DNA of 61,018 bases, taken from a virus. Lineage: Duplodnaviria; Caudoviricetes. The notes beneath the pieces were generated by a model that searched no databases, was not told the origin of the DNA, and was given only the letters and a program-made list of their open reading frames with translations. The DNA lies in the IMG/VR virus record IMGVR_UViG_3300012209_000002, positions 1-61,018 of that record; one strand, 5' to 3'. This document shows positions 1-61,018 of the stretch, piece after piece. The position numbers and the translations under genes were made by a program. Every line of letters starts with the position of its first letter. Position 1 is the first letter of the stretch.

Positions 1-123
1 ATCGCCAGCCCCTACGGCTGCACCTGGGAAGAGTTGCGCAACGATCTCAAGCTGATGTGGCGTGAAACCACCCGCGCGTCCAACTGGCTCATGACCGAAC
101 TCTACACGCGCGATTGCCGGCGC
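1..123. repeat. Terminal overlap (identical to 60896-61018); circular assembly
   Basis: First 123 nt ATCGCCAGCC...GCCGGCGC are identical to the last 123 nt, and an ORF reads through the junction. Confidence 0.97.
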
Positions 124-1035
124 GCGGGCGAGGAGAAGATGCCCCCGATGCAGCCCATCGACTTCTATACGGAGCTGAAGCGTTTCCCGGCATTGCCCCC
201 GCAGACCCGCGTGTCGCTGGCTCAAAGCTGCACCAAGAAATACAAAGCATTGCGTCGGGACGTGATCTGGACCTGTGCCAAGAGCCTGCCTAGTTTCCGT
301 TACCCCGTCCCTTTCCCCGTTCACAATCAGAGTTGGAGCGTGCGCATCGAAAAGGGACGGGCAATTCTCCGGGTGCGTATCGGCGAGGGCTGGCGCGAAC
401 TCCGTCTCAAGAGCGGCCCGCAATTCCGGCGACAGTACCGCTCCGTGCAACTGATAGCGAGAGGCGAGGCGATTACCGGCGAGGCAGCCATTTACCAGCG
501 TCAGTTCGAGGGGAAGTCCGCGCTCATGGTCAAGATGGTGGCTTGGTTGCCGCGTACTCCAGTCACGGGACTCAAGCCGGATTCGGTGTTACCGGTCTAC
601 ACACGGAAAGACGCGCTCCTGCAAGCGGTCAACACCGAGGACGAAGTACTGTGGACCTACAATGCGGATCACTTGCGGAGGTGGAGCGAGGAACATCGCA
701 AGACTCTTCAGAGATTGGCGGACGACAACAAATTCGAGGCCCGGCCAGTTCCGAGCTTCACGGATCGCCGTACCGCCCTGGTGCGGAAGTATCGCGACCG
801 CATGGACTCGGCCACGCACGAGATCGCCGCGCAACTTGCCTCGTACGCCGCCCGCCGCAAGTTCGCCGTAATGCGCTACGATGACACGGAGCGGGGGTTC
901 TGCGAGAGCCTGCCGTGGTACCGTTTAAAGCTACTGATCGAGCAAAAGTGCGAGGCGCTGGGGATACGATTTGAAGCAGCAGGCCCAAAAGAGTCGGAAA
1001 CGAAAGAATCGGAAGCGAGAGAAAACCAGCAGTGA
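1..1035 (+). CDS. 3' part of nuclease-dead TnpB/Cas12f-like RNA-guided DNA-binding protein (full gene 60680->junction->1035, 416 aa)
   Basis: C-terminal region follows the TnpB/Cas12f pattern: LVRKYRDRMDSATHEIAAQLASYAARRKFAVMRYDD (bridge helix/RuvC-II) and LPWYRLKLLIEQKCEALGIRF. The RuvC-I GxDxG is replaced by PVYTRKD, and the protein ends before the C-terminal Zn finger/RuvC-III. Confidence 0.75.
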   Translation: MASPYGCTWEELRNDLKLMWRETTRASNWLMTELYTRDCRRAGEEKMPPMQPIDFYTELKRFPALPPQTRVSLAQSCTKKYKALRRDVIWTCAKSLPSFRYPVPFPVHNQSWSVRIEKGRAILRVRIGEGWRELRLKSGPQFRRQYRSVQLIARGEAITGEAAIYQRQFEGKSALMVKMVAWLPRTPVTGLKPDSVLPVYTRKDALLQAVNTEDEVLWTYNADHLRRWSEEHRKTLQRLADDNKFEARPVPSFTDRRTALVRKYRDRMDSATHEIAAQLASYAARRKFAVMRYDDTERGFCESLPWYRLKLLIEQKCEALGIRFEAAGPKESETKESEARENQQ

Positions 1036-1083
1036 CGTGGATTGAAATCGTTGGCATCGTTTACCGCGATATACTGTTTTCGA

Positions 1084-1304
1084 AGGTCACCGAGGTTAGC
1101 AGACCTAGGGGCAGAAACGCTGAGAACGCTTGCCGACTCAGTATGTGATTGCCCAAATACCGTAAAGTGTTTCGGGATATCTCAGCAGTGTAAAAGCGAG
1201 CGGTCCTGGAAAACGGCGAAAGTCCAGAAGGCTTGAGACCTGCCGTTTCGGTGAAGCGAGAGGCCCGGCGGAAGAGAAAGAGCCGAAACCGCTCGCAAGA
1301 TCGG
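1084..1304 (+). ncRNA. Putative guide scaffold RNA copy 1
   Basis: Hairpin AGGTC/GACCT with loop ACCGA..; stem CTGAG/CTCAG enclosing invariant loop AACGCTTGCCGA (1125-1136); GGGATA; GCGAGCGGT (1196-1204) pairs with ACCGCTCGC (1288-1296). Confidence 0.65.
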
Positions 1305-1334
1305 AAAACAATGAGAAAGAATAGCTTTGAGATT

Positions 1335-1479
1335 ACTGTCCTACCGTACAGGACAGTTCCGACGACGCCGGGAACGCTTGCCGACCCGGTCGCTCGGATA
1401 GATGCTGGTAAGTCTTGGGATATGTGCGGCTTGCCGCGCCAGCCCTGAGAGCGAGCGAAAGCGAAAACGCTCGCTACGG
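1335..1479 (+). ncRNA. Putative guide scaffold RNA copy 2 with fused first repeat
   Basis: Hairpin ACTGTCCT/AGGACAGT with loop ACCGTAC; stem CCGGG/CCCGG enclosing AACGCTTGCCGA (1373-1384); GCTGG/CCAGC; GGGATA; anti-repeat GAGCGAGCG (1449-1457) pairing with CGCTCGC-TACGG (1468-1479). Confidence 0.75.
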
Positions 1480-1650
1480 GCCAAGAAATGGTCTTTCCGC
1501 CATCCACGCCAACGGACTGAGAGCGAGCGCAAACGAAAACGCCCGCTGCGGGTACCTGGCGAAAGCGTAAAACGCGCGTCGGATCGGCAGGAAGATCGCT
1601 ACGGGGTGCCAGCATTGGCCGCTCGCCGCGGGATGGAGAATTGAATTTAC
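1468..1650 (+). CRISPR. Non-canonical mini-repeat/guide array cognate to scaffold 2 (consensus CGCTCGCTACGG)
   Basis: Repeats at 1468 CGCTCGCTACGG, 1540 CGCCCGCTGCGG, 1593 AGATCGCTACGG and 1620 CGCTCGCCGCGG, separated by largely unique sequence. Confidence 0.5.
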
Positions 1651-1804
1651 AGCCCACCGATTAGGGCTAGGCTAGACATACGCTGGAAACGCTTGCCGAT
1701 TCAGTAGCTCTGGCGAAGGCTGGTCCCACTCCTCGGGTTAGTTCTCGTTGAGTGGGCGTAAACACTCCAGATACCTCTTGAAGGGAGCAGCCTGGGGAGC
1801 GACC
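1651..1804 (+). ncRNA. Putative guide scaffold RNA copy 3
   Basis: Hairpin AGCCC/GGGCT with loop ACCGATTA; GCTAGA/TCTGGC; stem CTGGA/TTCAG enclosing AACGCTTGCCGA (1688-1699); GGCTG/CAGCC; anti-repeat GAGCGACC (1797-1804). Confidence 0.75.
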
Positions 1805-1859
1805 TTTGACATTCCAGAGGCAGTTGCGGGGCACATCGCGGCTTGCGGCAACCTTGGCC

Positions 1860-2041
1860 GATCGCATCGGGACCGTCTCTATTTTCGAATCCCGGGAATG
1901 TCGCATCGGTTCAGGTCGCGTCGGGAGCCGCTTCGAGGCGCCGGTGCTATCCAACGCCAATCTATCTTTTCCCCGTCTCTTACTCCATACTTGCGGTTTT
2001 AGATCGTTAGGGTCGTTTCGGTCGGTTACGGGTCGCGTCGG
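1860..2041 (+). repeat. Cluster of GGTCGCNTCGG mini-repeats downstream of scaffold 3
   Basis: Copies at 1860, 1899, 1914, 2011 and 2031 (another at 2278), all on the + strand, irregular spacing. Confidence 0.65.
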
Positions 2042-2055
2042 GAGAGGTTGCCATC

Positions 2056-2277
2056 GTGTCGGTCAATGCGGATCTCTTGTGTCTATTCACCGAGTTGCGC
2101 CAGGAGATCCGCGATTCCAACCTCGAACGCCGGGAATCGGAGAGGGCCTTGGATCTTCGGTTGCGGCGGCTGGAAATTGCGCTAGTGCGGCATCGGGTGC
2201 GGGCGCGGATGTTAACAGCGGCGTGCGGGGCGGGAGCCAGCGCGGCCACGCACCTATTCGCGAAATATTACCATTAG
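2056..2277 (+). CDS. Small hypothetical protein, possibly lysis-associated
   Basis: 73 aa, GTG start after GGAGAGG; coiled N-terminus and weakly hydrophobic C-terminus. Confidence 0.55.
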   Translation: MSVNADLLCLFTELRQEIRDSNLERRESERALDLRLRRLEIALVRHRVRARMLTAACGAGASAATHLFAKYYH

Positions 2278-2327
2278 GGTCGCGTCGGGTAAGGTCACTC
2301 TGCGGAGTCGCCGAGGAGCATCTGAAG

Positions 2328-2588
2328 ATGAACATCGTGAATTCGGCAAAAGGCGAACTGGTGCAAACGGTTCTGCGCAAGATTGTCGACGGCAATACCG
2401 GCAGCACTCTGTTAGGCGGTGTGGCCGTGGCAATTCTGGCCTCGGGCGCCAGCTTTCCCGATTTGTTTTCGACGGATCAAAGTAAACTCGCGCATGCCTG
2501 GGGGCTGGCGATCGGCGGGGCGATTCTGGGCGTCTGGGGCTGGAAGATCGGCCGCAAGCCCGTCGCTCCCGCGCCGCCCGCTGTGTAG
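2328..2588 (+). CDS. Holin-like membrane protein
   Basis: 86 aa from ATG after GAGGAG; two hydrophobic helices (TLLGGVAVAILASGA, WGLAIGGAILGVWGW) and a basic C-terminus. Confidence 0.55.
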   Translation: MNIVNSAKGELVQTVLRKIVDGNTGSTLLGGVAVAILASGASFPDLFSTDQSKLAHAWGLAIGGAILGVWGWKIGRKPVAPAPPAV

Positions 2589-2870
2589 GTCGCTTCGGGG
2601 TGCGTCTGTCGCCTCGACATCGTCCTGATTTGCAGGTTGCTTCGTGCAAGGGCCGATTGGACGCAAAACTACTGTGATTTGGGCCGCTTCGGAATAAGCG
2701 TGCAGGTAACGTCGCTTCAGGATAATCCTCGCGTGGATTGCCGGTCGCCTCGGAGTATGCTGCCCGCCCCCGGTCGCTTCGGTGCTTTGATCGGCTTGGG
2801 TAGTCGCCTCGGGAACGAGGAATACGGGCCGCGCAGGTCGCTTTGTCTTAATGTACCGGCCATTGGACCG
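2588..2870 (+). CRISPR. Non-canonical array of nine 11-nt repeats (GGTCGCYTCGG) with mostly 17-23 nt spacers
   Basis: Repeats start at 2588, 2607, 2635, 2682, 2710, 2743, 2772, 2802 and 2836; spacers are 8, 17, 36, 17, 22, 18, 19 and 23 nt; intergenic between convergent genes. Confidence 0.65.
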
Positions 2871-2877
2871 ATAGCGG

Positions 2878-5202
2878 CTATTGAGCGGCGGCCTGCTTCG
2901 GTTCCGGTTGCTGCGATTTTGCCTCTTGTGCCACCCGCGCGGTTAGTGCCGTTGCTGCGGCGGTCCATGCTGGCGTGCGTACGGGCAGTGTCATAGCTTG
3001 AGTCAACAGTTTTGCTCCACCGGGGCTGAATAAGATCCGCGATCCCAACCAAGGCAAGCCGACGGCCCCGGTTATCTCCAATGCCGCTTGTCCCAATGCC
3101 GCTTGCTTAAACCCTCCGGTAATTGCCGTCACCAAAGCGTGCGCAACCGTTCCGTAAGCGCCTAATGCGTACCAACTGGAAGAAGTACCCGAAGGATTCA
3201 TAATCCGGCTGACCCGCTTGGATGCCAGCATGAACTTATCCAAATCCCCGGTGAGCTGCTTGCCGAACAACAGCTCCTTGGTTTCCGGCCCCAGTCTGTT
3301 CCAGTCGGCCGCAATCCCGGCGCTCCGTCCGAATCCGCCTTCTTTCGTGGATTTATCGATCAGCCCTTCCAGAAACGTGCGTCCGGTGGTTTTCAGTTCG
3401 TTTGGAGCGATCTTTCGCAACTCCCGCAAGGTATTCAACGAACGGTCGCCGCCTTGCACCAAGTTGTAGTAAAATTTCGCGGGCTCCTCGCTCATATCCT
3501 GAAACAGCTCATCCACGTTATGATAGGCACGCACCAATCGTCGGCCGGCTTGCAATTTGCCGAGAACGTCCGATCCCGCCCCCTGCACCGCTCGTTGGAA
3601 TTCGGTTTCTCCTTGCGCGATCGTCATCTTGGCGAGACGCTGCGATTGTGTGGAAAGATAAGGGCTGTCGCCATCGCGCGCCAGTGCTTTCACCGCGCTC
3701 AAGGTCCGGTCGAAATCCATGGCATTCATGAATTTCTTGTCCGAAGTCATCAATTCTTCGAGACTGCGCCATGCTGGGGAATTGGCCCGCCGCGCATCCG
3801 GCAAAGCCCGCTTCAGATCGTCGTAAACCGGCGCTAATCCTTGACGAATGGGCGCGAGATCGACGGGAGTTTCCAGAACGCTGTAAACGGGCACCTGGCG
3901 CGGCATTCCAGCGGGTGTCAGCGTGGCCAACGGGTTCGCTCCGGGCACCGTTTTCGTTCCGGTCTGCACGGTTTGTCGGTTAACCGCTGTCGATTGCCGC
4001 ACCTCGTTGTAGAGTCGATCGGCTTTCCCTTTTAACTGCGCGGTCAGACGAATTCGTCGCTGAATCAACGCCTGTCCCGCGCCGTAAGGATCGGTGACTT
4101 GTCCTCCTGCCCGCGCCGCCAGTTGCTTTTCTTTGCCGGCTAACGCTTCTTCGGTCGCCATACGGGCCTTACTGGCGCGGATGCCCGAGCCCGGCAGACT
4201 TTCCATAGTCTGCTCCACCCGCTTCAATCCGGGATGGCCCGTCCGCTGTCCAATGCTCAATGGCACGTCTTTCTCGATGGACTGAACGGCGGCTTCTTCC
4301 ACCGGGTTATAGACATTGCGCACGGCCGGTTCCAAACGGATTCCTTTGGGCAGCAATTTGGCCGCAGACGGCGCCAGCAATTCGAGCGTATGGGCCGCGC
4401 CCGCACCGTAGCGTCCTGCGCGAAAGTCTTCTCCGGCCTGTACCGCACCTGGACCGGCTATCGGCAAATACGATGCAGCGCGATATCCCAAACCGGCAAT
4501 CCCCGGCTCTTTCTTAGACTTCTCGTACATTTCCCGCTGCTGCCCGTACATCGCACGGCCGGCTTGAATCGGATTCTTCGCTGCCTCTCCGATCGCAGCC
4601 GGCAGATTGGAAATGTCCCCCCAGAGCGTACCCCAAAATCCTTTTGGCTGCATCGCTGTGTTTTGCAAGCCCAATTGCACGGCATTGGCTTTTTCCTTAA
4701 GGGGCAATGCTTTAAATGCCGGATCGTAGGCATCCAGCACCTTGATCTTTTCGATTCCAGGCAATTGCCGGAAGTTCGGGTCGGCGAAGATCTTACTCAA
4801 CTCGTCGGCCCCGCTTGACTGTTCGCCAGTTCTTTGCGTTTGATCCACGATTAGTTTGCCCGATTTGTCTACCAGCCGGTCGCCTTCCCAATGCGGCGCT
4901 TCCTCGGTCGCATACCGGGATTCTTTGGAAAAGTATCTGTGATACGGCGTTTTGTAGGTATCGGGGAAGTGTGCGCTGCCACCGCTCTTAACTCGCGTCT
5001 CCCGTTCCGCCATAGCTTTTGTGTCCCGAAAGAATCCGCGCATGTCGTAGTTAGAGGTCGGCGATTCGGTCCATGGGATCTTATTACTCTGCACCCAGAT
5101 TTGGAATTTCTTCTCTTCATCCGGCGGTAGTTTGGTGAGGTACGGTCCGGGTTTGGCAAAAGGAGACGGCGAAGTAAGTTGCTCGCTCAGTTCGTCAGCC
5201 AC
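2878..5202 (-). CDS. Putative virion ejection/internal (DNA transfer) protein
   Basis: 774 aa, A/G/Q-rich helical protein at the distal end of the virion operon, as in podoviruses. Confidence 0.55.
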   Translation of the reverse strand: MADELSEQLTSPSPFAKPGPYLTKLPPDEEKKFQIWVQSNKIPWTESPTSNYDMRGFFRDTKAMAERETRVKSGGSAHFPDTYKTPYHRYFSKESRYATEEAPHWEGDRLVDKSGKLIVDQTQRTGEQSSGADELSKIFADPNFRQLPGIEKIKVLDAYDPAFKALPLKEKANAVQLGLQNTAMQPKGFWGTLWGDISNLPAAIGEAAKNPIQAGRAMYGQQREMYEKSKKEPGIAGLGYRAASYLPIAGPGAVQAGEDFRAGRYGAGAAHTLELLAPSAAKLLPKGIRLEPAVRNVYNPVEEAAVQSIEKDVPLSIGQRTGHPGLKRVEQTMESLPGSGIRASKARMATEEALAGKEKQLAARAGGQVTDPYGAGQALIQRRIRLTAQLKGKADRLYNEVRQSTAVNRQTVQTGTKTVPGANPLATLTPAGMPRQVPVYSVLETPVDLAPIRQGLAPVYDDLKRALPDARRANSPAWRSLEELMTSDKKFMNAMDFDRTLSAVKALARDGDSPYLSTQSQRLAKMTIAQGETEFQRAVQGAGSDVLGKLQAGRRLVRAYHNVDELFQDMSEEPAKFYYNLVQGGDRSLNTLRELRKIAPNELKTTGRTFLEGLIDKSTKEGGFGRSAGIAADWNRLGPETKELLFGKQLTGDLDKFMLASKRVSRIMNPSGTSSSWYALGAYGTVAHALVTAITGGFKQAALGQAALEITGAVGLPWLGSRILFSPGGAKLLTQAMTLPVRTPAWTAAATALTARVAQEAKSQQPEPKQAAAQ

Positions 5203-5205
5203 GGT

Positions 5206-6957
5206 TTATTTTCCGATTCCACGCAGACGCAGGTACTCATCGGCGGTTTTGGGAGGTGGTCCCGGAGCACCCGTAGGTCCGCTCGGCCCAGATGGTCCTG
5301 TAGGTCCGCCCGGCCTTGGCCCCGCACCTTGCCCTGTATCTTGCGCCGGTCCCCCAATCTCCACCCCGCCTTCCGTCATCGCCGGACTGTTTCTGATCGA
5401 GTTCAGCCGGTATCCTAGGTTCTTGCGCGTCAAGTTCACCGCGGCCCGCAGCGTCTTGTCGTCCCAATCGCCGCTTAGAATCTTCATGGCCTGCCCGAGA
5501 CTTTTATCGGTAGGAGTGTTTCCTCCCTGATAGACTGTGGCGAGTTCGGATTGCAGATCGGTGATTTGGATATCGAGAAGCCGCGCTGCTTCCGCCGCCG
5601 GTTGCCCGAAAATTCCGCTTTTCGCCGTGTTCAATGCCAGTTTGTTGATAATCGGAAACTTGGTGCGCGGAACGGCATTGCGTAAATCTCCGAGCAAATC
5701 CTTACCCGGTTGTTGAGAATTGTCGATCAGGTCCAGACTTTCCACGGTGAAATCGACGGCTTGCCGCAATCGCACCTGCGTCGGTCCGTTCAAAGTCCGT
5801 ATCCAGATAGTTGTAGCCATCCAGTCTTTCTGGGCTTTGGCGAGATTGTATCCTTCCCTAGCCAGTTCGGCGGTCACGCGTCCCGCCATTCCTGTACGAC
5901 CCAACCCTGTCAGCATGGGCGACAGCAACCCATTTTTAATCCCTTGTGCGATGCTGGGCGCATCTTTCTCTGTCTGTTGCAAGTTGATGATGGACGCGGG
6001 CAGACGGTCGGCCTTGGTAATGGATTCCTGTCGCGCTTTGGCGTATGCCTCTGCAAACGGCATTCCTTTGGCCATGAATGCGTCGGTGCGAAATCTGGTA
6101 ATTGTAGCCATCTGATCGGATGCGTAATATTGGCGCGCCTGTTCTCCTTGTTCTGGAGTCAGCGGTAATTTCAATCCTGCCTTTTGTGCGTAAGCCTGAT
6201 GTAATTCCTCATCCTTCAGTTTGGCTTCGGACGGTACAGCGGGTTTATCGGTGCGAGTCCAGTTTTCCGGCGGTCGGAACGTTTTGCCCGCCATGCGATA
6301 CACATCGGGAGGATCGGTGGATAACTTGTCCAAAATTACGACGGTGCCATCCGGCTTGAGAAAATGCGCTTCCTTCTCGGAACCGGTTTTGGCCTCGACA
6401 TTGTACAGCTTGGCAATGCCGGTATCGTACTGATCCTTGGTAATTTGTCCGGTGCGTAGCGCCTCATCCAGCCGGTCCCGTCCCGTTTCGATTCCCATTT
6501 GCTGGGCAACGAACAAATCTTCGTCCGCCTGCCGCTGTACGATGCTTTTCTTTTGCGCTTCCCGTTGGGCTGTCTGCTGCGCGATTTCGTCGCGTTTGAC
6601 TCGTACCTGTTCCGGAGTAAGGCTGGCTCCCGCGGGCATGGGCGGCACCGCCGGTCCCTTCCCCACCGGGTCCAGTTGCCCTAGCCCCTTTCCCATGGCC
6701 TTTCCCGCGCCTGCCAATGTTCCCAACATGCCGAACAGCTTCCCCGAGTGCTGCTTCATCTGTGGGGGGCCTTCTTTCTGAAACAGCTTTTCGTAGTTCT
6801 GCAGCGCCCAGGCTTTGAGCACGGAAGGATCTTGACCGGCGGACAGCAATTCTTCGTCGGGCGCGGTGAACAGGTGTGTATACATCGCCGACTGGTTCAT
6901 CACGTCGCGTTGCTTGGACTCCTGATGCGTCCGAATCAGATTGGTGATGACACCCAT
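5206..6957 (-). CDS. Putative ejection/internal virion protein with collagen-like C-terminal GXX tract
   Basis: 583 aa; GPTGPSGPSGPTGAPGPPP near the C-terminus; operon position. Confidence 0.55.
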   Translation of the reverse strand: MGVITNLIRTHQESKQRDVMNQSAMYTHLFTAPDEELLSAGQDPSVLKAWALQNYEKLFQKEGPPQMKQHSGKLFGMLGTLAGAGKAMGKGLGQLDPVGKGPAVPPMPAGASLTPEQVRVKRDEIAQQTAQREAQKKSIVQRQADEDLFVAQQMGIETGRDRLDEALRTGQITKDQYDTGIAKLYNVEAKTGSEKEAHFLKPDGTVVILDKLSTDPPDVYRMAGKTFRPPENWTRTDKPAVPSEAKLKDEELHQAYAQKAGLKLPLTPEQGEQARQYYASDQMATITRFRTDAFMAKGMPFAEAYAKARQESITKADRLPASIINLQQTEKDAPSIAQGIKNGLLSPMLTGLGRTGMAGRVTAELAREGYNLAKAQKDWMATTIWIRTLNGPTQVRLRQAVDFTVESLDLIDNSQQPGKDLLGDLRNAVPRTKFPIINKLALNTAKSGIFGQPAAEAARLLDIQITDLQSELATVYQGGNTPTDKSLGQAMKILSGDWDDKTLRAAVNLTRKNLGYRLNSIRNSPAMTEGGVEIGGPAQDTGQGAGPRPGGPTGPSGPSGPTGAPGPPPKTADEYLRLRGIGK

Positions 6958-20285: not shown

Positions 20286-21775
20286 GGTGTTGAATGGGCA
20301 TCGTAACCCAAAGCCTTCCACTGCGCGTAGGTTTTTGTGACGCCATTCACGGTAAATGCCGCCGCACCTGTCCCGAAGTCGTTGTTGTCCGAGACCGCCG
20401 TAAAAGCGCTTCCAAAGTGGTAATACTTGCTCGTAACCCCAGACAGATTCAGCCCGCTCGCGTTCAGAGTAACGCCCGATCGCGTTTGCACCACGCCGGA
20501 TTCTCCAGCCAAAGTTATGCCAATCAGATTCAGAGTCGCATTGTTCACTGCCCCATTGAAAATCGCATTGGAGCCGCTACCGGAAACTGTCACGGAACCA
20601 TTGTTCACCGTGAGAATCAGCGATTGCGGACTGGCTTCGAACGCATCGGCCTGAATGTCGATTCCGCGGCTGGCCCCCGAAGAAAGCGCGATAGACGAAT
20701 CGCCGATCGTCACCGCAGAGCCGCCCAACTCGGAAGACATCTGAATTCCCGGCGTAGTAGCCGTTACTGTCACATTCTGAAGATACGCATTGGCCACTTG
20801 CGAAAACACGATTCCCGCCGGTCCCATGAACTGCGAATCGACGATGGATAGATTTCCCAAGTTGCCGGTGCCGTGCGCCAGCATCGCATCTCCGGCAGTG
20901 GGCATGACCGTGAAATGCGAGTACACGTTGCTCAAAGAGATCGAGTCGCCCGCTCCCCAAGTGTCGTTTAGGACCAACGGGCTAGGCCCTCCCACGGTGC
21001 CCCAGTAACCGTCCAATAACTCAACATGAGTGAGAGCGGCGTTTTTCTTGACATAGCAGGAGTGCTTGCTGCCCTGCGTGACCAAACTATGCGCCAGAGT
21101 GCAATACGAGCCAAGGACCGTGCTGCCATCGGTATGCAGATTGCGCCTGGTCCATGCACCCGAGATCGTCACGCCCGTGACACTCCGGGTTGTAATGCCA
21201 AATGGCCGCGTGGAGACTTCGATCCAGCCATCGGCTTTTGCGGTCGGGTCTGCATCGCCCGTCAGATGCACGTAGAGCGTGATGGTTCCCAAATCGGCAC
21301 TGGGATAATAACTGCCTGCCGTAGACTGACAAGCAACCAGCGAGGCCGCCCGCACCGCCACTGTGCCGTTTTCGTAAGAGGTCACGAATCCGCCGCCGCT
21401 CGATACCGATGGATCGAGAACAACGGCGGCCTGATATACATTCGCCTGCCCGTCTGTTGCCGTCCAGGATGTCGCGGCTACTGCGTCCGAGGCATCGAGC
21501 AGATATTTCAGCCCCGAACCCATCGGGTCCCAGGCATCGATGGTCATGTTGTTGCGCGGTACCGTTACCGCTTCGCGCCACTGCCGCTGCGTGGCCGGAT
21601 GCGCAGCGGACGACACCGCAAAACGCCAACGGCTCTTGTTCGCCCCGGTATCTACCGAAACCAGATGCGCCACGGTCTGAAAAGGCTGATTGTAAGCACC
21701 GGTGTTGCTATTGGAGCCATCCAGCACGTCCACATAATAAGCGTCCACCGTGGGAATAACTGCACCGAAATGCAT
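20282..21775 (-). CDS. Right-handed beta-helix tailspike/depolymerase-like protein
   Basis: YYVDVLDGSNSNTG..QPFQTV start and repeated beta-helix turns; ends WKALGYDAHS. Confidence 0.7.
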   Translation of the reverse strand: MHFGAVIPTVDAYYVDVLDGSNSNTGAYNQPFQTVAHLVSVDTGANKSRWRFAVSSAAHPATQRQWREAVTVPRNNMTIDAWDPMGSGLKYLLDASDAVAATSWTATDGQANVYQAAVVLDPSVSSGGGFVTSYENGTVAVRAASLVACQSTAGSYYPSADLGTITLYVHLTGDADPTAKADGWIEVSTRPFGITTRSVTGVTISGAWTRRNLHTDGSTVLGSYCTLAHSLVTQGSKHSCYVKKNAALTHVELLDGYWGTVGGPSPLVLNDTWGAGDSISLSNVYSHFTVMPTAGDAMLAHGTGNLGNLSIVDSQFMGPAGIVFSQVANAYLQNVTVTATTPGIQMSSELGGSAVTIGDSSIALSSGASRGIDIQADAFEASPQSLILTVNNGSVTVSGSGSNAIFNGAVNNATLNLIGITLAGESGVVQTRSGVTLNASGLNLSGVTSKYYHFGSAFTAVSDNNDFGTGAAAFTVNGVTKTYAQWKALGYDAHSTP

Positions 21776-23652: not shown

Positions 23653-24450
23653 TCACGAGGGGAGTGGAATCGCTGAACAAAACCGTTTGAGCTTAGCTCC
23701 CCTTGTTTCTTTCCCGCCAGGGTCCATCCAAGGAATACCGTGATAATTCAAGCGGTGTTTTAAGTTCGCCAGCGGGATATCGAAGATCTCCGCGACCTTA
23801 CGGCAGTTGTTCTGAAAGGTTTCCATCGCCGCCACAATGTCTTCCAATGAAGTATGCGCCCGTAGAATGTTGGATTCCGCAGTAGAATTCACTTTGTACC
23901 CGAACCGTTTCGCCTTGATCCACACCGAAGAATAGTCCATACCATGTATTCGGGCGATGTCCGCAATACTTTTGCCGGAAGCCATCAGGTTAAAAAACAC
24001 GTCCCGACGAAGCTTGATCTGGCTGGTGTTGTTTAATCCGTTGAGAGGCTGAAATAGGATGGCGTACCTGCGATAGTCCTCGGCACGTTGCTTTTTGATG
24101 CGCAGATAGGGAAGCATCCCCTCAATGAACAAGCGAATTGACCGTTGTTGGGTAATCCAGAGGTTCCACATCGGTTTGCGCCTGCCGGGATGCTCACGCT
24201 GCTCTTTTCGGTTGTGGTGAGCACAGATGTAAGCAAAGATTCCTTGTGCCGTTAGAAAATCAGCAATCTCTTGAAGAGTTCTCTTCCCAAGATCTTCCGC
24301 CTGCGAGATAGTGGCTCGAAACCTTCCGTTTCCCTCGCCTCCAGCTCCAAGAGCGTGAAGACAACCCTCTCCATCGAAGAAACCAGCGATATACGCCCAT
24401 GTTATTTTCATGAGCCGTATCGTTTCGCATTTCCATTCGGCGGTCAACAT
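23653..24450 (-). mobile_element. Free-standing LAGLIDADG homing endonuclease with C-terminal HTH region
   Basis: WAYIAGFFDGEGC motif; LPYLRIKKQRA. Confidence 0.85.
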
Positions 24451-27760: not shown

Positions 27761-28255
27761 TCAGTTTAAGACAACGGGACCCGATTTTTCTTTTGTGTAA
27801 TCCATGGGCTTGTTGCGCCTGTTCATGGACTTGGAGGCTTCGTAAAAACCTTCAAGCATCGCTACTGCTTCAGGATCGCGAGCTTCGTAACGAGCCGGTT
27901 GAGACGTCTCCACTAACGTTTGGAACGCTATACCAAGCTGGGCGTTCGCCTTTTTTAAAACCAAATACGGCAACAGCTTTTTGAGAACGATTACCGCTTT
28001 CTTGCCGTGAATCCGATACCACCAGTAGGTCCAGCCGTGAGTTTTTAGCTTCGACAGATGACCGCCGAAAACCTTCACTAGCATGTCCATTGGAAGCCGA
28101 GAGCGCTGGCAAATAACAACTTGCAACTGATATCCCGGATAGCAAGCAATGCTTCCGTCTTTACGCTGTTGGCGAGTGATCGGCTTGGAGATGCTGACGC
28201 AGCCCTCTCCATCGAAGAATCCGGCCGCCCAAACGAGTTGTTCATGTTTCGTCAT
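27761..28255 (-). mobile_element. Free-standing LAGLIDADG homing endonuclease
   Basis: WAAGFFDGEGCVSI; LLPYLVLKK. Confidence 0.88.
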
Positions 28256-36258: not shown

Positions 36259-36497
36259 CGGCCTCGGCTCCGCATCGCGGGTAGCACCCGCGAGCCCTTG
36301 CCGAACGCCGGAATAATGTAAGCGTGCAAGTGCGTGCCCTTGGAGCCCGCCTGCGCGAACCGGTCGTACTCCGCCTGGGGCACTCCCGCGTAACTGTAAA
36401 CGGACCCGTTGACGAACTCTACCGTGAGCGTGCTCGATTCCGGGTCGTACGAAAAATGCTGGATATGGCTGGATTGGGCCACCGGCATAGTTTTCAT
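36255..36497 (-). CDS. KTSC domain protein
   Basis: SSHIQHFSYDPESSTLTVEFVNGSVYSYAGVP..AGSKG. Confidence 0.88.
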   Translation of the reverse strand: MKTMPVAQSSHIQHFSYDPESSTLTVEFVNGSVYSYAGVPQAEYDRFAQAGSKGTHLHAYIIPAFGKGSRVLPAMRSRGR

Positions 36498-37027
36498 GAT
36501 AGCGCAAGACATTTCCAGCATCTGCCCCTAACGATATTGGCAATGTGCCCCGCGCTAACGTTCAGAGACTTTGCAATAGAGATCTGAAGTTCACCATCCC
36601 GCACCCTTCGAATAACTTCACGAACCTCATGCTCATGGAGTTTAGCGGCATAATGCTGTTCGCCGGAACAGGCTTTGCCAATTTTCTTCCGGCCCTTTTG
36701 AATCATGTCCGTCGTGTTATCTTGTTTTGTGCCGAGAAACAAATGGTATGGTTTAACGCAATCGCGTTGATCGCATTTATGTAGCACACACAAACCTTTT
36801 GGAATTTTCCCAAACACTAAATACCAAGCAACCCGATGGGCCGCTACTGGTCTTCCCTTCAAATGAACGCTGCCGTATCCAGCTTGTGGATGTTTGTACG
36901 CTGTCCAAATCCAGCATCTCCCCAATTCCGGACAGTGTTTCGGTGTGGGACCATTCAATCGAACTTTGGTCCAAAACCGATCCTCGACGGAACCGTCAAT
37001 GCGCGGGCTATACTGACGTTTGGACAT
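36494..37027 (-). mobile_element. HNH homing endonuclease
   Basis: RFWTKV..CWIWT..AHRVAW..VLHKCD..CVKPYHLFLGT..DN; C-terminal HTH. Confidence 0.9.
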
Positions 37028-43275: not shown

Positions 43276-43472
43276 CGGCGCAGATTCTTTTTCAGAGACT
43301 CGAAACAATCGGGGCACTCCCCGGAACGATACAGGAAACTGGCGGGCACTCCGCAAATCCGGCACACGCCTTCTTCCATGGGCACGGAAAATCGGTTAGG
43401 CGCCTCTTCGATACTGGCAGCATGTTCCTGTTCGATGGACTCCTGCCATGACTCAATCTCGAACTCTTCCAT
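43272..43472 (-). CDS. Small zinc-finger protein
   Basis: CRICG...CPDC; RBS GGGAG. Confidence 0.55.
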   Translation of the reverse strand: MEEFEIESWQESIEQEHAASIEEAPNRFSVPMEEGVCRICGVPASFLYRSGECPDCFESLKKNLRR

Positions 43473-44534
43473 GCGGATAGTTTCTCCCGAATTCCTGCGC
43501 GGCTCCGGGCTCAAGCGCACGGTTCCAACTTGCATCGGCAGGAGCAATGCAATTACACGTGGGGGGTGGCGGGCGGGCGTGGCCTCTTTAGCTACTAGTA
43601 GCAGTTACTGCCGGGGGTAAGTGTCTGAGCAGAAGATAACGCGCGCACGGCGCGCTTTATCTTCGCAGCTCCAACGAGAGCGCGCAGCGCGAACGGGGGA
43701 GCGGGCTCCAGGACCGGCGCTCCGGGCACCCCCGCACTCGCTCCCGCACCGACACCGAACCCGCAATCCGCCGGAGGCCCGGACTCGCTTCTCCGCTTTG
43801 CCCCTTGCAGGGTCAAATGCTCGAATGCTCGCCCTCCCCTGCCCCTGCGCCGATTTCCAACGGAATTCCCTGAATTTGAAAATTCGATTTTTCCCTTTTC
43901 CCAAAAATGGAGACGCGGAGTCAGCCCGGGCCCCCCGCGCCCCACCCCTGCCACAACCTGCGCCGGCGCCGACCGCACGCAGGGCATGGGGGCAGCACCG
44001 GGCTGCGGTGTACGGCGCCGGCATGGGCCCAGGGAGCGAGTACGGGTGGGAGTCGGGATACCGGAGATCCAGATGTGCCACGGAAGCGAGGCGAAGGCGG
44101 GGTTACATATACACCGATTATCGGAAGCAGGGCGCAGCACTGGTGCATGGGTGCACAGGCAGACGCGCATTGCGAGGAGCTGGTGACGCGTACCCGAAAG
44201 GGTACGAGGCCCAGGTCCGAGCCTAAGACGCACGCGCGAAAGCGTTGGTAGCAGGGCGTGCGCGCGCGTTGTCGCAGCATGTGCAGGGGTGCAGGGGGGG
44301 GAGATGGCGGATCGGGGAGTAAGGCGAGAGCGGGGAGTGGGAAGGGCCCCCTACCCCCGGGAGGCAGGAAGGGGAACCCAGGGGCGAGCGTAGCACGAAT
44401 GCGAGAAATCGTGCTACGAGTGCGTTGGGAAACGCGGGAGGGAAAATAACGTTTGACGTGTGTCGGTGCAGCGGCTACGATGGGATTGCTGGCTGAGGCT
44501 GGCGCCGCTCCGACAAGCGGCGATGGAGGAAACG

Positions 44535-59114: not shown

Positions 59115-59192
59115 GGTCGCGTTGGTGTATCGAGCCGTGGACGGAGCAGAAGTCGCGTCGGAAAGTTCTCGGATGGAATTTGGTTGCGTCGG
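59115..59192 (+). repeat. Mini-repeats upstream of scaffold 4
   Basis: GGTCGCGTTGG at 59115, AGTCGCGTCGG at 59151, GGTTGCGTCGG at 59182. Confidence 0.55.
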
Positions 59193-59244
59193 GTTGATCG
59201 AGGAACGGATTTCGGGGAGCGAAGCAAGGATATTTACGGACTAC

Positions 59245-59392
59245 GGGCTACCGAACAAGCCCAGGCCGACTAACGCCGGGAACGCTTGCCGACCCGGTCG
59301 CGTTGGCGAAGGCGGTTCTCCGGAAAACCGGGGATGAAACGCTTGGGATAACCCGGCTGGAACCAACGCCGGGTCCGCCCCAGGAGTGACTG
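59245..59392 (+). ncRNA. Putative guide scaffold RNA copy 4
   Basis: Hairpin GGGCT/AGCCC with loop ACCGAACA; GCCGAC/GTTGGC; CCGGG/CCCGG enclosing AACGCTTGCCGA (59281-92); GGCGG/CCGCC; GGGATA; anti-repeat GAGTGACTG (59384-92). Confidence 0.75.
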
Positions 59393-59528
59393 ACTACCTC
59401 GCGGGAGGATTCGGCAGTGAACTCGGGTTGGAGTGTGGTATCGAAGAACGAGTTGAGTCGGGACCAGTAACGAGTCGCTAAGATTTAGTTACTTCGGAAT
59501 GTTCGTTCAAGTGCAAAAAGGAGAGCGC

Positions 59529-59921
59529 ATGGCATCGCCATCGAAAGACAGATTGAGACGCGCGAACGCGAGCAAACTGACTCCTGTCGAGTCCATGGAG
59601 AATCTGGAGACGCGCAAGCGCCTGGAGTCCCTGTTGCGGGAAGCGCTTGTCCTCAAGGTCCGTATGTCCGCCGACGAGGAGGATTTGGAGCGCATCAAGA
59701 CCGAGCTGGGCGGTCTCGTGCAAGCGCTCAATCTGGCTGGGGTGCGCTCGGGCCTGGTCGGGTTCGAGTGCTCGGGATGGCAGCGGCGCAGCAATCTGCA
59801 AAAGTCTCTGCTGGTGGATCTGCTCTCGCGTTATGGAGCCCCGCTGGAGGAGCTGGAGCGGTGCTACACGACCGGGGAGCCGTATCTGATGACCAGATTG
59901 CATGTGTTCGATGCGGAGTAG
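59529..59921 (+). CDS. Hypothetical protein
   Basis: RBS AAGGAG; 130 aa. Confidence 0.6.
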   Translation: MASPSKDRLRRANASKLTPVESMENLETRKRLESLLREALVLKVRMSADEEDLERIKTELGGLVQALNLAGVRSGLVGFECSGWQRRSNLQKSLLVDLLSRYGAPLEELERCYTTGEPYLMTRLHVFDAE

Positions 59922-59925
59922 AAAA

Positions 59926-60183
59926 ATGAACATTGAAAACATAAAACCTGGCGAGAAACCCGATTGTGTGATTGCGTTAAATAAAGACGATCCGTGTTAT
60001 CGGCCATCCGAGGGCGTAATCGACAATAAGTGCTTGCTATGCGAAGCCACTGTAGCACTGGATCGGGCTAGCCAAGCATTGATGCCTTTGCCGGTTTATT
60101 GTTTGACATGTTTCATGCAATTCAGAAACGCCAATGTTGTGATTAGAAGAGCAGCACCCGTGCATGTGTTCGATGCGGAGTAA
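59926..60183 (+). CDS. Small Cys-rich protein (inserted cassette)
   Basis: CLLC..CLTC; AT-rich; bounded by 22-nt direct repeats. Confidence 0.55.
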   Translation: MNIENIKPGEKPDCVIALNKDDPCYRPSEGVIDNKCLLCEATVALDRASQALMPLPVYCLTCFMQFRNANVVIRRAAPVHVFDAE

Positions 60184-60184
60184 C

Positions 60185-60228
60185 AGTCGCTTCGGTAAAA
60201 ACGATGTGGAGTAGGACAGTCATTTCGG
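60185..60228 (+). repeat. Two mini-repeats cognate to scaffold 4
   Basis: AGTCGCTTCGG at 60185 and AGTCATTTCGG at 60218, 22-nt spacer. Confidence 0.55.
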
Positions 60229-60679: not shown

Positions 60680-61018
60680 ATGTCCGTGAAATCCCCCGAA
60701 TCCCCCGAGCCCGATGTCGTCGCAGTCGAAGTCGTCTGCTGCGATTGCCGGAAGCGCCGCAAGACCAAACTCACCCCGGCCGGCAATCCGCGCACGCCCA
60801 TGGGCTGGCACAAGCACGACAAGGACGCCGAATCCGTGGTCTATTGCCCCGACTGCTGGGCCAAGCGCTATCTGCTCCGCGCCGTCGCCATGCCCATCGC
60901 CAGCCCCTACGGCTGCACCTGGGAAGAGTTGCGCAACGATCTCAAGCTGATGTGGCGTGAAACCACCCGCGCGTCCAACTGGCTCATGACCGAACTCTAC
61001 ACGCGCGATTGCCGGCGC
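60680..61018 (+). CDS. 5' part of the nuclease-dead TnpB/Cas12f-like protein, with N-terminal zinc finger
   Basis: MSVKSPESPEPDVVAVEVVCCDC...YCPDCWAKRYLLRAVAMPIASPYG runs in frame into position 1; missed by the ORF track. Confidence 0.8.
   Translation, partial: MSVKSPESPEPDVVAVEVVCCDCRKRRKTKLTPAGNPRTPMGWHKHDKDAESVVYCPDCWAKRYLLRAVAMPIASPYGCTWEELRNDLKLMWRETTRASNWLMTELYTRDCRR
60896..61018. repeat. Terminal overlap identical to 1-123
   Basis: Exact 123-nt match. Confidence 0.97.

Follow-up and report, generated by a model that had tools for sequence, protein, structure and literature searches.

What is the function, in a viral genome, of nine copies of an 11-nucleotide (nt) motif that stand in a row with variable sequence between them? 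The question is raised by positions 2588 to 2846 of the virus record IMGVR_UViG_3300012209_000002 (Caudoviricetes), the whole of which, 61,018 base pairs (bp) in length, was analysed and is referred to here as the window. A first-pass annotation, made from the letters alone, had taken the motif copies for a cryptic array whose spacers would serve as guides for a TnpB- or Cas12f-type protein. The row of units is probably a reduced guide-RNA array, in which units resembling clustered regularly interspaced short palindromic repeat (CRISPR) RNAs, or crRNAs, would pair in trans with a scaffold RNA resembling a trans-activating crRNA (tracrRNA) and guide a DNA-binding effector protein that does not cut. 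The guide idea gains strong support of a contextual kind from a nearby gene for a dead protein of Cas12f fold, from a scaffold RNA with covarying pairs, from the homology of the units to the repeats of related loci and from their complementarity to the scaffold's anti-repeat; it is with respect to targets that it falls short. The array lies between two open reading frames (ORFs), neither of which has a Pfam match:

2588..2846, plus strand: mini-repeat array of nine units, (G)GTCGCYTCGG, with spacers of 9, 18, 37, 18, 23, 19, 20 and 24 nt
2328-2588, plus strand: ORF of 86 amino acids (aa), whose stop borders the array on the left
2878-5202, minus strand: convergent ORF of 774 aa, whose stop borders the array on the right

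The 10-nt core GTCGCYTCGG of the units starts at 2589, 2608, 2636, 2683, 2711, 2744, 2773, 2803 and 2837, and with the leading G each unit begins one base earlier. The number of units and their start-to-start distances (19, 28, 47, 28, 33, 29, 30 and 34 nt) are as first described, and the four example spacers given at that time were all found in the sequence. The units are imperfect, matching at 8-10 of 10 positions, and mean pairwise identity within the array is 0.81 for repeats and 0.27 for spacers. As the spacings are not multiples of three, the array is not a coding repeat. Folding of 2580-2880 yielded no stable structure of the array itself on either strand (z +0.51 and +1.39), and the whole window has no Rfam match at gathering thresholds and no match in a tRNA scan. 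A scan of positions 1-3500 returned neither sigma-70 promoters nor intrinsic terminators (0 and 0). Two spacers had been remarked upon for beginning with -10-like hexamers; both hexamers are present, although the promoter scan and all else give no hint that they are relevant.

The effector protein (P0002, 416 aa) is encoded about 1.5 kb upstream of the array, in a gene that is interrupted by the ends of the contig:

60680..61018, plus strand: 5′ part of the effector gene, with its ATG at 60680; it runs off the contig end into the terminal repeat and resumes at 124
1..1035, plus strand: 3′ part of the effector gene, coding for residues 73-416 and with the stop at 1033-1035; Cas12f/TnpB fold

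Searches with the single sequence of P0002 gave no match in Pfam, PHROG, NCBIfam or PDB, and three family members scanned against NCBIfam gave nothing significant (best E 0.26, far under its cut-off). A search with a protein language model pointed to TnpB-related clusters and is taken as a lead, not as evidence. A protein search found a 100% identical protein and at least 292 homologues with a length of about 400 aa, of which those listed, 120 in number, share 48-64% identity and carry no Pfam domains. An AlphaFold2 model built from a 30-sequence alignment (mean predicted local distance difference test score, or pLDDT, 90.3) has 86 Foldseek matches in PDB at E<=0.001, the best being AsCas12f (8j12_A, E 2.5e-18), and the best 50 of the 86 are all Cas12f, TnpB, Cas12k/g/m/h, CasX, Cas-pi, Fanzor, TranC or Cas12p. 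The family profile matches OsCas12f (9nzq_A, E 1.4e-7), and the dCas12f structure 9n9c is among both the fold and the profile matches. The effector thus has the WED-REC-RuvC fold and the profile homology of the Cas12f/TnpB superfamily, and it lacks the RuvC D-E-D triad and the TNB zinc finger of an active nuclease. At RuvC-I the 'GVDMG' of Cas12f is aligned to 'VLrVrT', where the Asp column holds Y, R, H or another non-acidic residue (Y in the window); the RuvC-II Glu column is D or N; and the family falls about 60 residues short of the Cas12f C-terminus, stopping near residue 369 of a 433-residue chain, so that in the profile alignment the TNB Zn-finger and RuvC-III are missing. At its N-terminus the effector carries a four-Cys ribbon. 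Judged by sequence and modelled fold, the effector is a predicted nuclease-dead relative of Cas12f and TnpB. Its profile matched none of five hand-picked genomes and 1 of 301 sampled Planctomycetota genomes; in that genome (G188, loci L301-L303) a match on contig C53 has E 4.5e-60, and two partial matches lie on contig C62.

A search with the effector family alignment led to 10 viral and 75 metagenome loci, 54 of which extend at least 250 nt past the stop codon. Most of these 54 contain a conserved sequence of about 125 nt that begins 15-45 nt after the effector stop, followed by a hairpin of 35-38 nt whose 3′ end (...YUNCGGG) directly adjoins variable sequence. The hairpin consists of an anti-repeat strand (for example CCCGGAAGUGACC), a loop and a repeat strand (GGUCAYUUCGGG), and in relatives the repeats end in ...CTGCGGG, ...TTTCGGG or ...CTTCGGG. 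Scaffold and first repeat are fused in most loci, in the manner of a natural single guide, and in at least a dozen loci an array with a period of 71-80 nt comes next, made up of a 35-36 nt repeat and a spacer of about 36 nt. At locus L247 (810-1712) the scaffold-plus-repeat unit is present four times in tandem, about 251 nt apart and each time with its own spacer, an arrangement that recalls some dCas12f loci, for which guide RNAs in tandem have been reported.

Structural conservation of this scaffold was assessed with two alignments. In a MAFFT alignment of 30 loci, RNAalifold recovered 33 pairs, and compensatory changes occur in 26. In an alignment fitted to a covariance model, which is biased towards structure in a way the MAFFT alignment is not, 94.3% of cells are paired and both partners vary in 31 of 35 pairs; none of 500 shuffles reached that, neither shuffles nor slides approached the observed covariation, and within the anti-repeat:repeat helix all six pairs covary (6/6). 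The covariance model matches 54 of 86 sources (67 matches), every one on the strand of the effector gene, and there are besides the window 53 phage or metagenome loci with a scaffold RNA of about 150 nt after an effector homologue. A conserved, structured guide-RNA scaffold therefore stands beside the gene, as is the case for TldR and dCas12f. Compared with this family, the window motif GGUCGCYUCGG(G) is, by its sequence, the repeat strand (3′ strand) of the hairpin alone.

The window itself holds four copies of the scaffold and a short stretch of full-length repeats, all upstream of the array or across the contig junction:

1079..1255, plus strand: scaffold copy A (R1 model E 1.6e-6 and 5.9e-7), with its own repeat hairpin (AAACGGC...GCCGUUUCGG)
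1333..1483, plus strand: scaffold copy B, the canonical one (R1 85.8 bits, E 1e-17), ending in the full repeat hairpin R1 (1443-1480)
1481..1552, plus strand: spacer S1 (1481-1516, 36 nt) and the second full repeat R2 (1517-1552, 36 nt)
1646..1833, plus strand: scaffold copy C (R1 32.6 bits; split matches 1646-1740 and 1741-1833), with anti-repeat GCCUGGGGAGCGACC at 1790-1804
59240..59418, plus strand: scaffold copy D (R1 55.7 bits, E 7e-11)

Degenerate short units follow R2 at about 1570-1632. The anti-repeat of copy C (GCCUGGGGAGCGACC) has only a weak partner in cis, and with the consensus mini-repeat it can form nine contiguous pairs and three more, at -16.8 kcal/mol. Across 19 window units the mean duplex energy with this anti-repeat is -13.7 kcal/mol, against -7.4 +/- 3.0 kcal/mol for 500 random 12-mers.

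The same relation is found in two further genomes that carry mini-repeats of different sequence. At L199 (genome G007) the motif is GGAAGCTGCGG (as RNA GGAAGCUGCGG), present in 37 exact copies in four clusters, and at L200 (G008) it is GGTCACYTCGG, with 21 copies on the plus strand and 0 on the minus strand. In each genome the motif is complementary to the anti-repeat of its own scaffold: AGCGACC and GGUCGCU in the window, AGCUUCC and GGAAGCU in L199, GGUGACC and GGUCAC(U) in L200. The motif therefore changes together with the anti-repeat, a property of tracrRNA:crRNA systems that inheritance in cis would also allow. The 46.6-kb genome G007 has four dispersed scaffolds (4868-5022, 20511-20665, 28068-28218 and 43466-43616), with clusters of the 11-nt mini-repeat flanking each of them, on the same strand as the scaffold, in intergenic DNA, and a few near-duplicate spacers are shared between its clusters. 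Among the 54 loci with downstream sequence, large mini-repeat arrays were found only in L199 and L200, and the mini-repeat form is thus a minority variant. In L258, a single repeat within an otherwise normal array is truncated to its 3′ strand; it is plausible that this represents an intermediate towards mini-repeats.

The window's own motif recurs in a phage contig of 112.5 kb (G001, locus L004) that ends in 11-13 copies of it, with intervals more even than those of the window (7 of 10 are 28 nt). Its spacers share at most 8 nt with window spacers, and the sole protein common to G001 and the window is an HNH endonuclease (33% identity). Effector and scaffold were not found in the G001 contig and may lie beyond its end. 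This was the only true analogue among 58 loci returned by a two-copy motif scan of viral contigs, nearly all of which were coding or simple tandem repeats; a three-copy scan of genome contigs gave at least 120 loci, tandem or coding, among which no analogue was recognised. A motif scan also turned up L104, a contig of a Pirellulaceae metagenome-assembled genome, where positions 480-1300 consist of tandem units of about 200 nt, each with 3-4 copies of a 25-nt unit starting GTCGCATCGG. A 21-nt word of the scaffold had 0 matches in viral contigs.

Beyond the array, copies of the motif are found at several other places in the window:

59116..59192, plus strand: three mini-repeat units (starts 59116, 59152, 59183), just 5′ of scaffold copy D
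60186..60228, plus strand: two units, GTCGCTTCGG (60186) and GTCATTTCGG (60219), upstream of ORF 60242/60251-60511
1861..2041, plus strand: six mini-repeat units (starts 1861, 1900, 1915, 1927, 2012, 2032), in the interval from scaffold copy C to ORF 2056-2277
2279..2308, plus strand: two units, GTCGCGTCGG (2279-2288) and GGTCACTCTGCGG (2296-2308), upstream of the ATG at 2328

These outlying copies (59116-59192, 60186, 1861-2041 and 2279) form one arc of about 4.7 kb around the effector ORF. Counted with one mismatch over the whole window, the motif occurs 17 times where 16.5 are expected, which is chance level; 12 of the 17 fall in 1900-2812, all 12 on the plus strand. Exact GTCGCNTCG is present in 11 copies on the plus strand and 0 on the minus strand, and five exact copies of GTCGCYTCG occur within 300 nt, where the largest cluster in 60 first-order Markov simulations was one. 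A position weight matrix (PWM) finds, at 10 bits or more, 24 matches on the plus and 3 on the minus strand, 21 of the 24 lying between 59116 and 2837 across the contig junction, a result that is partly circular because the matrix was built from 16 of these same sites. Position 6, in the middle of the unit, is the sole low-information position of the matrix, and it is G or A in all four used sites upstream of 2588 that have an intact GTCGC core. Small plus-strand ORFs with good ribosome-binding sites begin 14-50 nt 3′ of some of the outlying units (GTG 2056, ATG 2328, ORF 60242/60251), so that some 'spacers' are mRNA leaders. A direct repeat of about 22 nt (59899-59921 and 60160-60183) makes up the last codons (...HVFDAE, stop) of ORFs 59499-59921 and 59902-60183, and its second copy directly precedes a mini-repeat unit.

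In the proposed mechanism, the plus strand would be transcribed through the array, and each GGUCGCYUCGG handle would pair in trans with a scaffold RNA's anti-repeat, the scaffold playing the part of a tracrRNA. The effector protein would bind the duplex of handle and anti-repeat, and the sequence of about 18-24 nt that lies 3′ of the handle would serve as the guide for an R-loop on matching DNA beside a target-adjacent motif (TAM). Since the effector is predicted to be unable to cut, the outcome would be binding, and this could bring about transcriptional repression or other control of host, rival-element or phage genes. New units would arise by recombination or duplication rather than by Cas1-type acquisition. 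Typical spacer lengths are 18-24 nt in the window, 18 nt in G001 and 14-23 nt in G007, and there is precedent for short guides, as dead TnpB relatives have been described that use 9-11 nt (10.1101/2023.11.30.569447) and 14-16 nt (PMC13472631). A wider proposal is put forward tentatively and with rather less confidence: that a class of phage RNA-guided systems exists, composed of a dead Cas12f-like protein, a tracr-like scaffold and arrays with 10-12 nt handles, in which dozens of guides of about 18 nt, placed in several clusters, would silence host or rival genes without cutting. In a bolder variant, a unit may act on its own DNA, with the end of the handle as TAM, and provide RNA-guided control of transcription of downstream phage genes.

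A spacer match within the family was found outside the window. In L202 (G010), spacer 5 of a canonical six-repeat array (2471-2506) matches its own genome at 36 of 36 positions, on the opposite strand at 5248-5283, within the first 80 nt or so of ORF 5205-5945, whose N-terminus, read by eye, is methyltransferase-like. Such a self match would be tolerable to a non-cutting effector. It is the one case of a 36/36 match to the own genome among 14 canonical spacers (G009, G010 and G011), and as there is a single matched site no TAM can be derived. A match of an L247 spacer to L231 and L280 was considered as a target and rejected, being the same unit in inverted orientation. Spacer turnover among relatives, which had been suggested as a check on the guide idea, is seen in some comparisons and absent from others. 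L223 and L258 agree at 100% in the 854 nt that precede the first repeat and are unrelated beyond, and L207 and L208 are 99% identical with the first spacer replaced, whereas spacers are conserved among the close relatives L213/L247/L264 and L247/L231/L280. Among the sequencing runs listed as containing the region there was no RNA run. Contigs of the same phage were recovered from four soil runs; in the covered part of the array, at low depth, they are identical to the window except for C>T at 2795 (spacer 7) in X4 and X5, and the array being identical, they are uninformative on spacer turnover.

Several observations, among them the conserved spacers just mentioned, weigh against a guide array. 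Spacer lengths are uneven, 9-37 nt in the window and down to 3 nt in L200, and because spacers can be as short as 3-9 nt some units cannot be guides. No protospacer was found for any window spacer in the window, the phage genomes, the family loci or the viral contigs, host genomes not having been searched. For 21 window guides there is no self match of at least 12 nt anchored at the guide start, in agreement with the first-pass annotation, which had found none by eye; it had placed the targets in the host or in competing phages, possibly at promoters, an expectation for which these phage sequences offer no match. Against six phage genomes the window spacers gave chance-level words of 11-15 nt only, 12 window spacers compared with the family loci gave just words of 15-16 nt (E 0.009-0.036), and a 22-mer of spacer S1 had 0 matches in viral contigs. 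Of the proposed pseudoknot between the repeat end (UCGG) and an invariant loop (CCGA), three pairs are invariant, and the fourth is unpaired in 22 of the 61 sequences that have letters at both of its positions. The complementarity of mini-repeat and anti-repeat was possibly inherited from a parent hairpin rather than selected for pairing in trans; transcription, processing and trans pairing are what we infer from sequence; and for the units 20-50 nt before start codons (2032, 2279, 60186/60219) a role in mRNA leaders fits at least as well.

This last point leads to the main alternative, considered unlikely, in which the units are cis-acting RNA handles on phage transcripts, bound by the effector-scaffold complex or by a host RNase. 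Here they would serve in processing, or in control of the stability or translation of downstream small ORFs, and the array at 2588-2846 would titrate scaffold or effector in the manner of a sponge or buffer. The distances of 14-50 nt from unit to start (2032 to GTG 2056, 2279/2296 to ATG 2328, 60186/60219 to ORF 60242/60251) are what such handles would lead one to expect, as are the placement of all units on the strand of the plus transcription unit, the intergenic units that flank each of the four dispersed scaffolds of G007, the uneven spacer lengths and the lack of targets found. The nine units at 2588-2846, however, are followed by no plus-strand ORF, only by the end of the convergent gene; the spacers of G001 and G007 are mostly 14-23 nt, a guide-like range; and the family uses repeat-plus-spacer units, one of which has a perfect match in DNA.

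Two other readings are less likely again. The units could be functionless, decaying relics of an array of 36-nt repeats that have lost the 5′ halves of their repeats, which is held to be improbable. The truncated repeat of L258 demonstrates that loss down to the 3′ strand is possible for a single repeat, and the imperfect window units (8-10 of 10 positions) and the degenerate units after R2 (1570-1632) have the appearance of decay. Relics should nevertheless decay as spacers do, yet the repeats retain an identity of 0.81 against 0.27 for spacers, G007 has kept 37 exact 11-mer copies in four clusters and G008 has kept 21, complementarity between motif and anti-repeat is maintained in three lineages with differing sequences, and the same motif accompanies other spacers in an unrelated phage (G001). 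More improbable still is that the units are DNA sites (origin iterons, partition or packaging sites, operators) to which the effector-guide complex itself or some unrelated protein would bind, despite their being intergenic direct repeats on one strand with a spacing of roughly 28-34 bp, and despite a motif that varies between phages in step with the neighbouring gene, as initiator-iteron pairs do. That neighbouring gene has a Cas12f fold and encodes neither a replication initiator nor ParB, while the D5-type primase and helicase lie 12-15 kb away; spacing in L200 ranges from 13 to over 60 nt (13-63 or more) and is not helically phased; no window guide matches the motif; and the motif is accounted for by its homology to, and pairing within, a covarying RNA. 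Neither of the marks of iterons or partition sites, an adjacent initiator or ParB gene and helical phasing, is thus present.

To call the locus a cryptic CRISPR array would be too strong. Canonical CRISPR repeats are near-identical and about 23-55 nt long, and the units here are 10-12 nt with an identity of 0.81, although two full repeats of 36-38 nt are present upstream of the array (1443-1552); spacers are not of near-constant length; and adaptation genes are wanting, in that the Cas1 profile PF01867, for which control genomes gave matches, has no match across the 61-kb record, as the first-pass annotation had supposed (Cas2 was not searched for). The guide-array reading places the system nearer to type V-F Cas12f, with which it shares a small effector of Cas12f fold, a structured scaffold RNA encoded next to that effector, base pairing between a repeat and an anti-repeat strand, the guide lying directly 3′ of the former, and, in most relatives, 36-nt repeats with spacers of about 36 nt. 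Unlike type V-F, it is carried by phages, the effector is without the RuvC-I Asp and the TNB/RuvC-III end, there is no Cas1, the scaffold is fused to the first repeat in most loci of the phage family, and the repeats of the window, L199 and L200 are cut to 10-12 nt with uneven spacers.

Domesticated relatives that do not cut offer a second point of comparison. In TldR proteins (TnpB-like nuclease-dead repressors) the RuvC is dead and the C-terminus truncated; some are encoded by phages, and the guide RNA lies just downstream, with guides of 9-11 nt in one clade (10.1101/2023.11.30.569447); repression by binding has been reported for them (PMC13622181). The phage effector resembles TldR in its dead RuvC, C-terminal truncation, downstream guide RNA and proposed short guides, and TldR is described, as far as the available text of these sources goes, with adjacent guide RNAs and no multi-guide array, in contrast to the arrays and up to four scaffolds per genome found here. 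The phage effector further differs in that its nearest solved relatives by profile are Cas12f rather than TnpB, in its N-terminal four-Cys ribbon, and in that no association with fliC, oppF or csrA was seen for the phage system. The dCas12f-sigmaE systems, which serve RNA-guided transcription, consist of naturally nuclease-dead, C-terminally truncated Cas12f homologues, directly downstream of which are encoded guide RNAs of 85-105 nt, in some cases as a tandem series; the guide proper, 14-16 nt, forms their 3′ end (PMC13472631). A dead, truncated Cas12f homologue is common to both, and dCas12f (9n9c) is among the matches of the effector. The dCas12f-sigmaE systems are chromosomal in Bacteroidota and the present ones are found in soil phages; one domain search gave no sigma-70 region 2 domain in the window's genome, and the available portion of PMC13472631 makes no mention of arrays with 10-12 nt handles. 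By analogy, the system would be of the tracrRNA:crRNA kind, type V-F-like in its working and TldR/dCas12f-like in not cutting.

Guide arrays without adaptation genes are also carried by viruses in other forms. Virus-borne mini-CRISPR arrays carry a complete copy of the host repeat and depend on Cas proteins from the host. Together with solitary repeat units and TIGR-Tas, they resemble the present locus as virus-carried guide arrays lacking adaptation genes, or as short-period arrays with short conserved parts; the effector here differs in being Cas12f-like and encoded by the phage. In full-text literature, supplements and subscription journals excluded, no description of the effector family or of arrays with 10-12 nt repeats was found. 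If the proposed explanation is true, a handle of only 10-12 nt suffices for guide arrays, provided that the remainder comes from a separate scaffold RNA. This would bear on the evolution of CRISPR repeats and tracrRNAs from TnpB-type guide RNAs, and it would point to multiplex guide arrays of very compact form for use with miniature Cas12f-type tools. A large, conserved, phage-borne family of non-cutting RNA-guided proteins would then join the two known domesticated TnpB/Cas12f cases (TldR and dCas12f-sigmaE), and the L202 spacer on its own methyltransferase-like gene would hint that RNA guides control the timing of phage genes or act on rival phages.

With regard to the wider genome, the virus record that makes up the window is complete and has a terminal repeat of 123 bp (1-123 and 60896-61018). 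As this repeat falls within the effector ORF (60680..61018 continuing 124..1035), the contig ends are arbitrary, and they probably mark the place where the assembly opened a circular or permuted genome rather than physical ends. An idea involving Chi sites or terminal protection was ruled out by the same position of the repeat. Most window proteins are without family assignment. The flanking proteins (774 aa and 333 aa), used as single queries, found no relatives among viral contigs, and five distant relatives reached via a 634-aa protein have no motif cluster. Recognisable genes include those for an SU10-type adaptor, a D5-type primase, a helicase, RecT, a lysozyme, an ERCC4 nuclease and two homing endonucleases; the latter, of the LAGLIDADG and HNH types, are located at 23653-24450 and 36494-37027.

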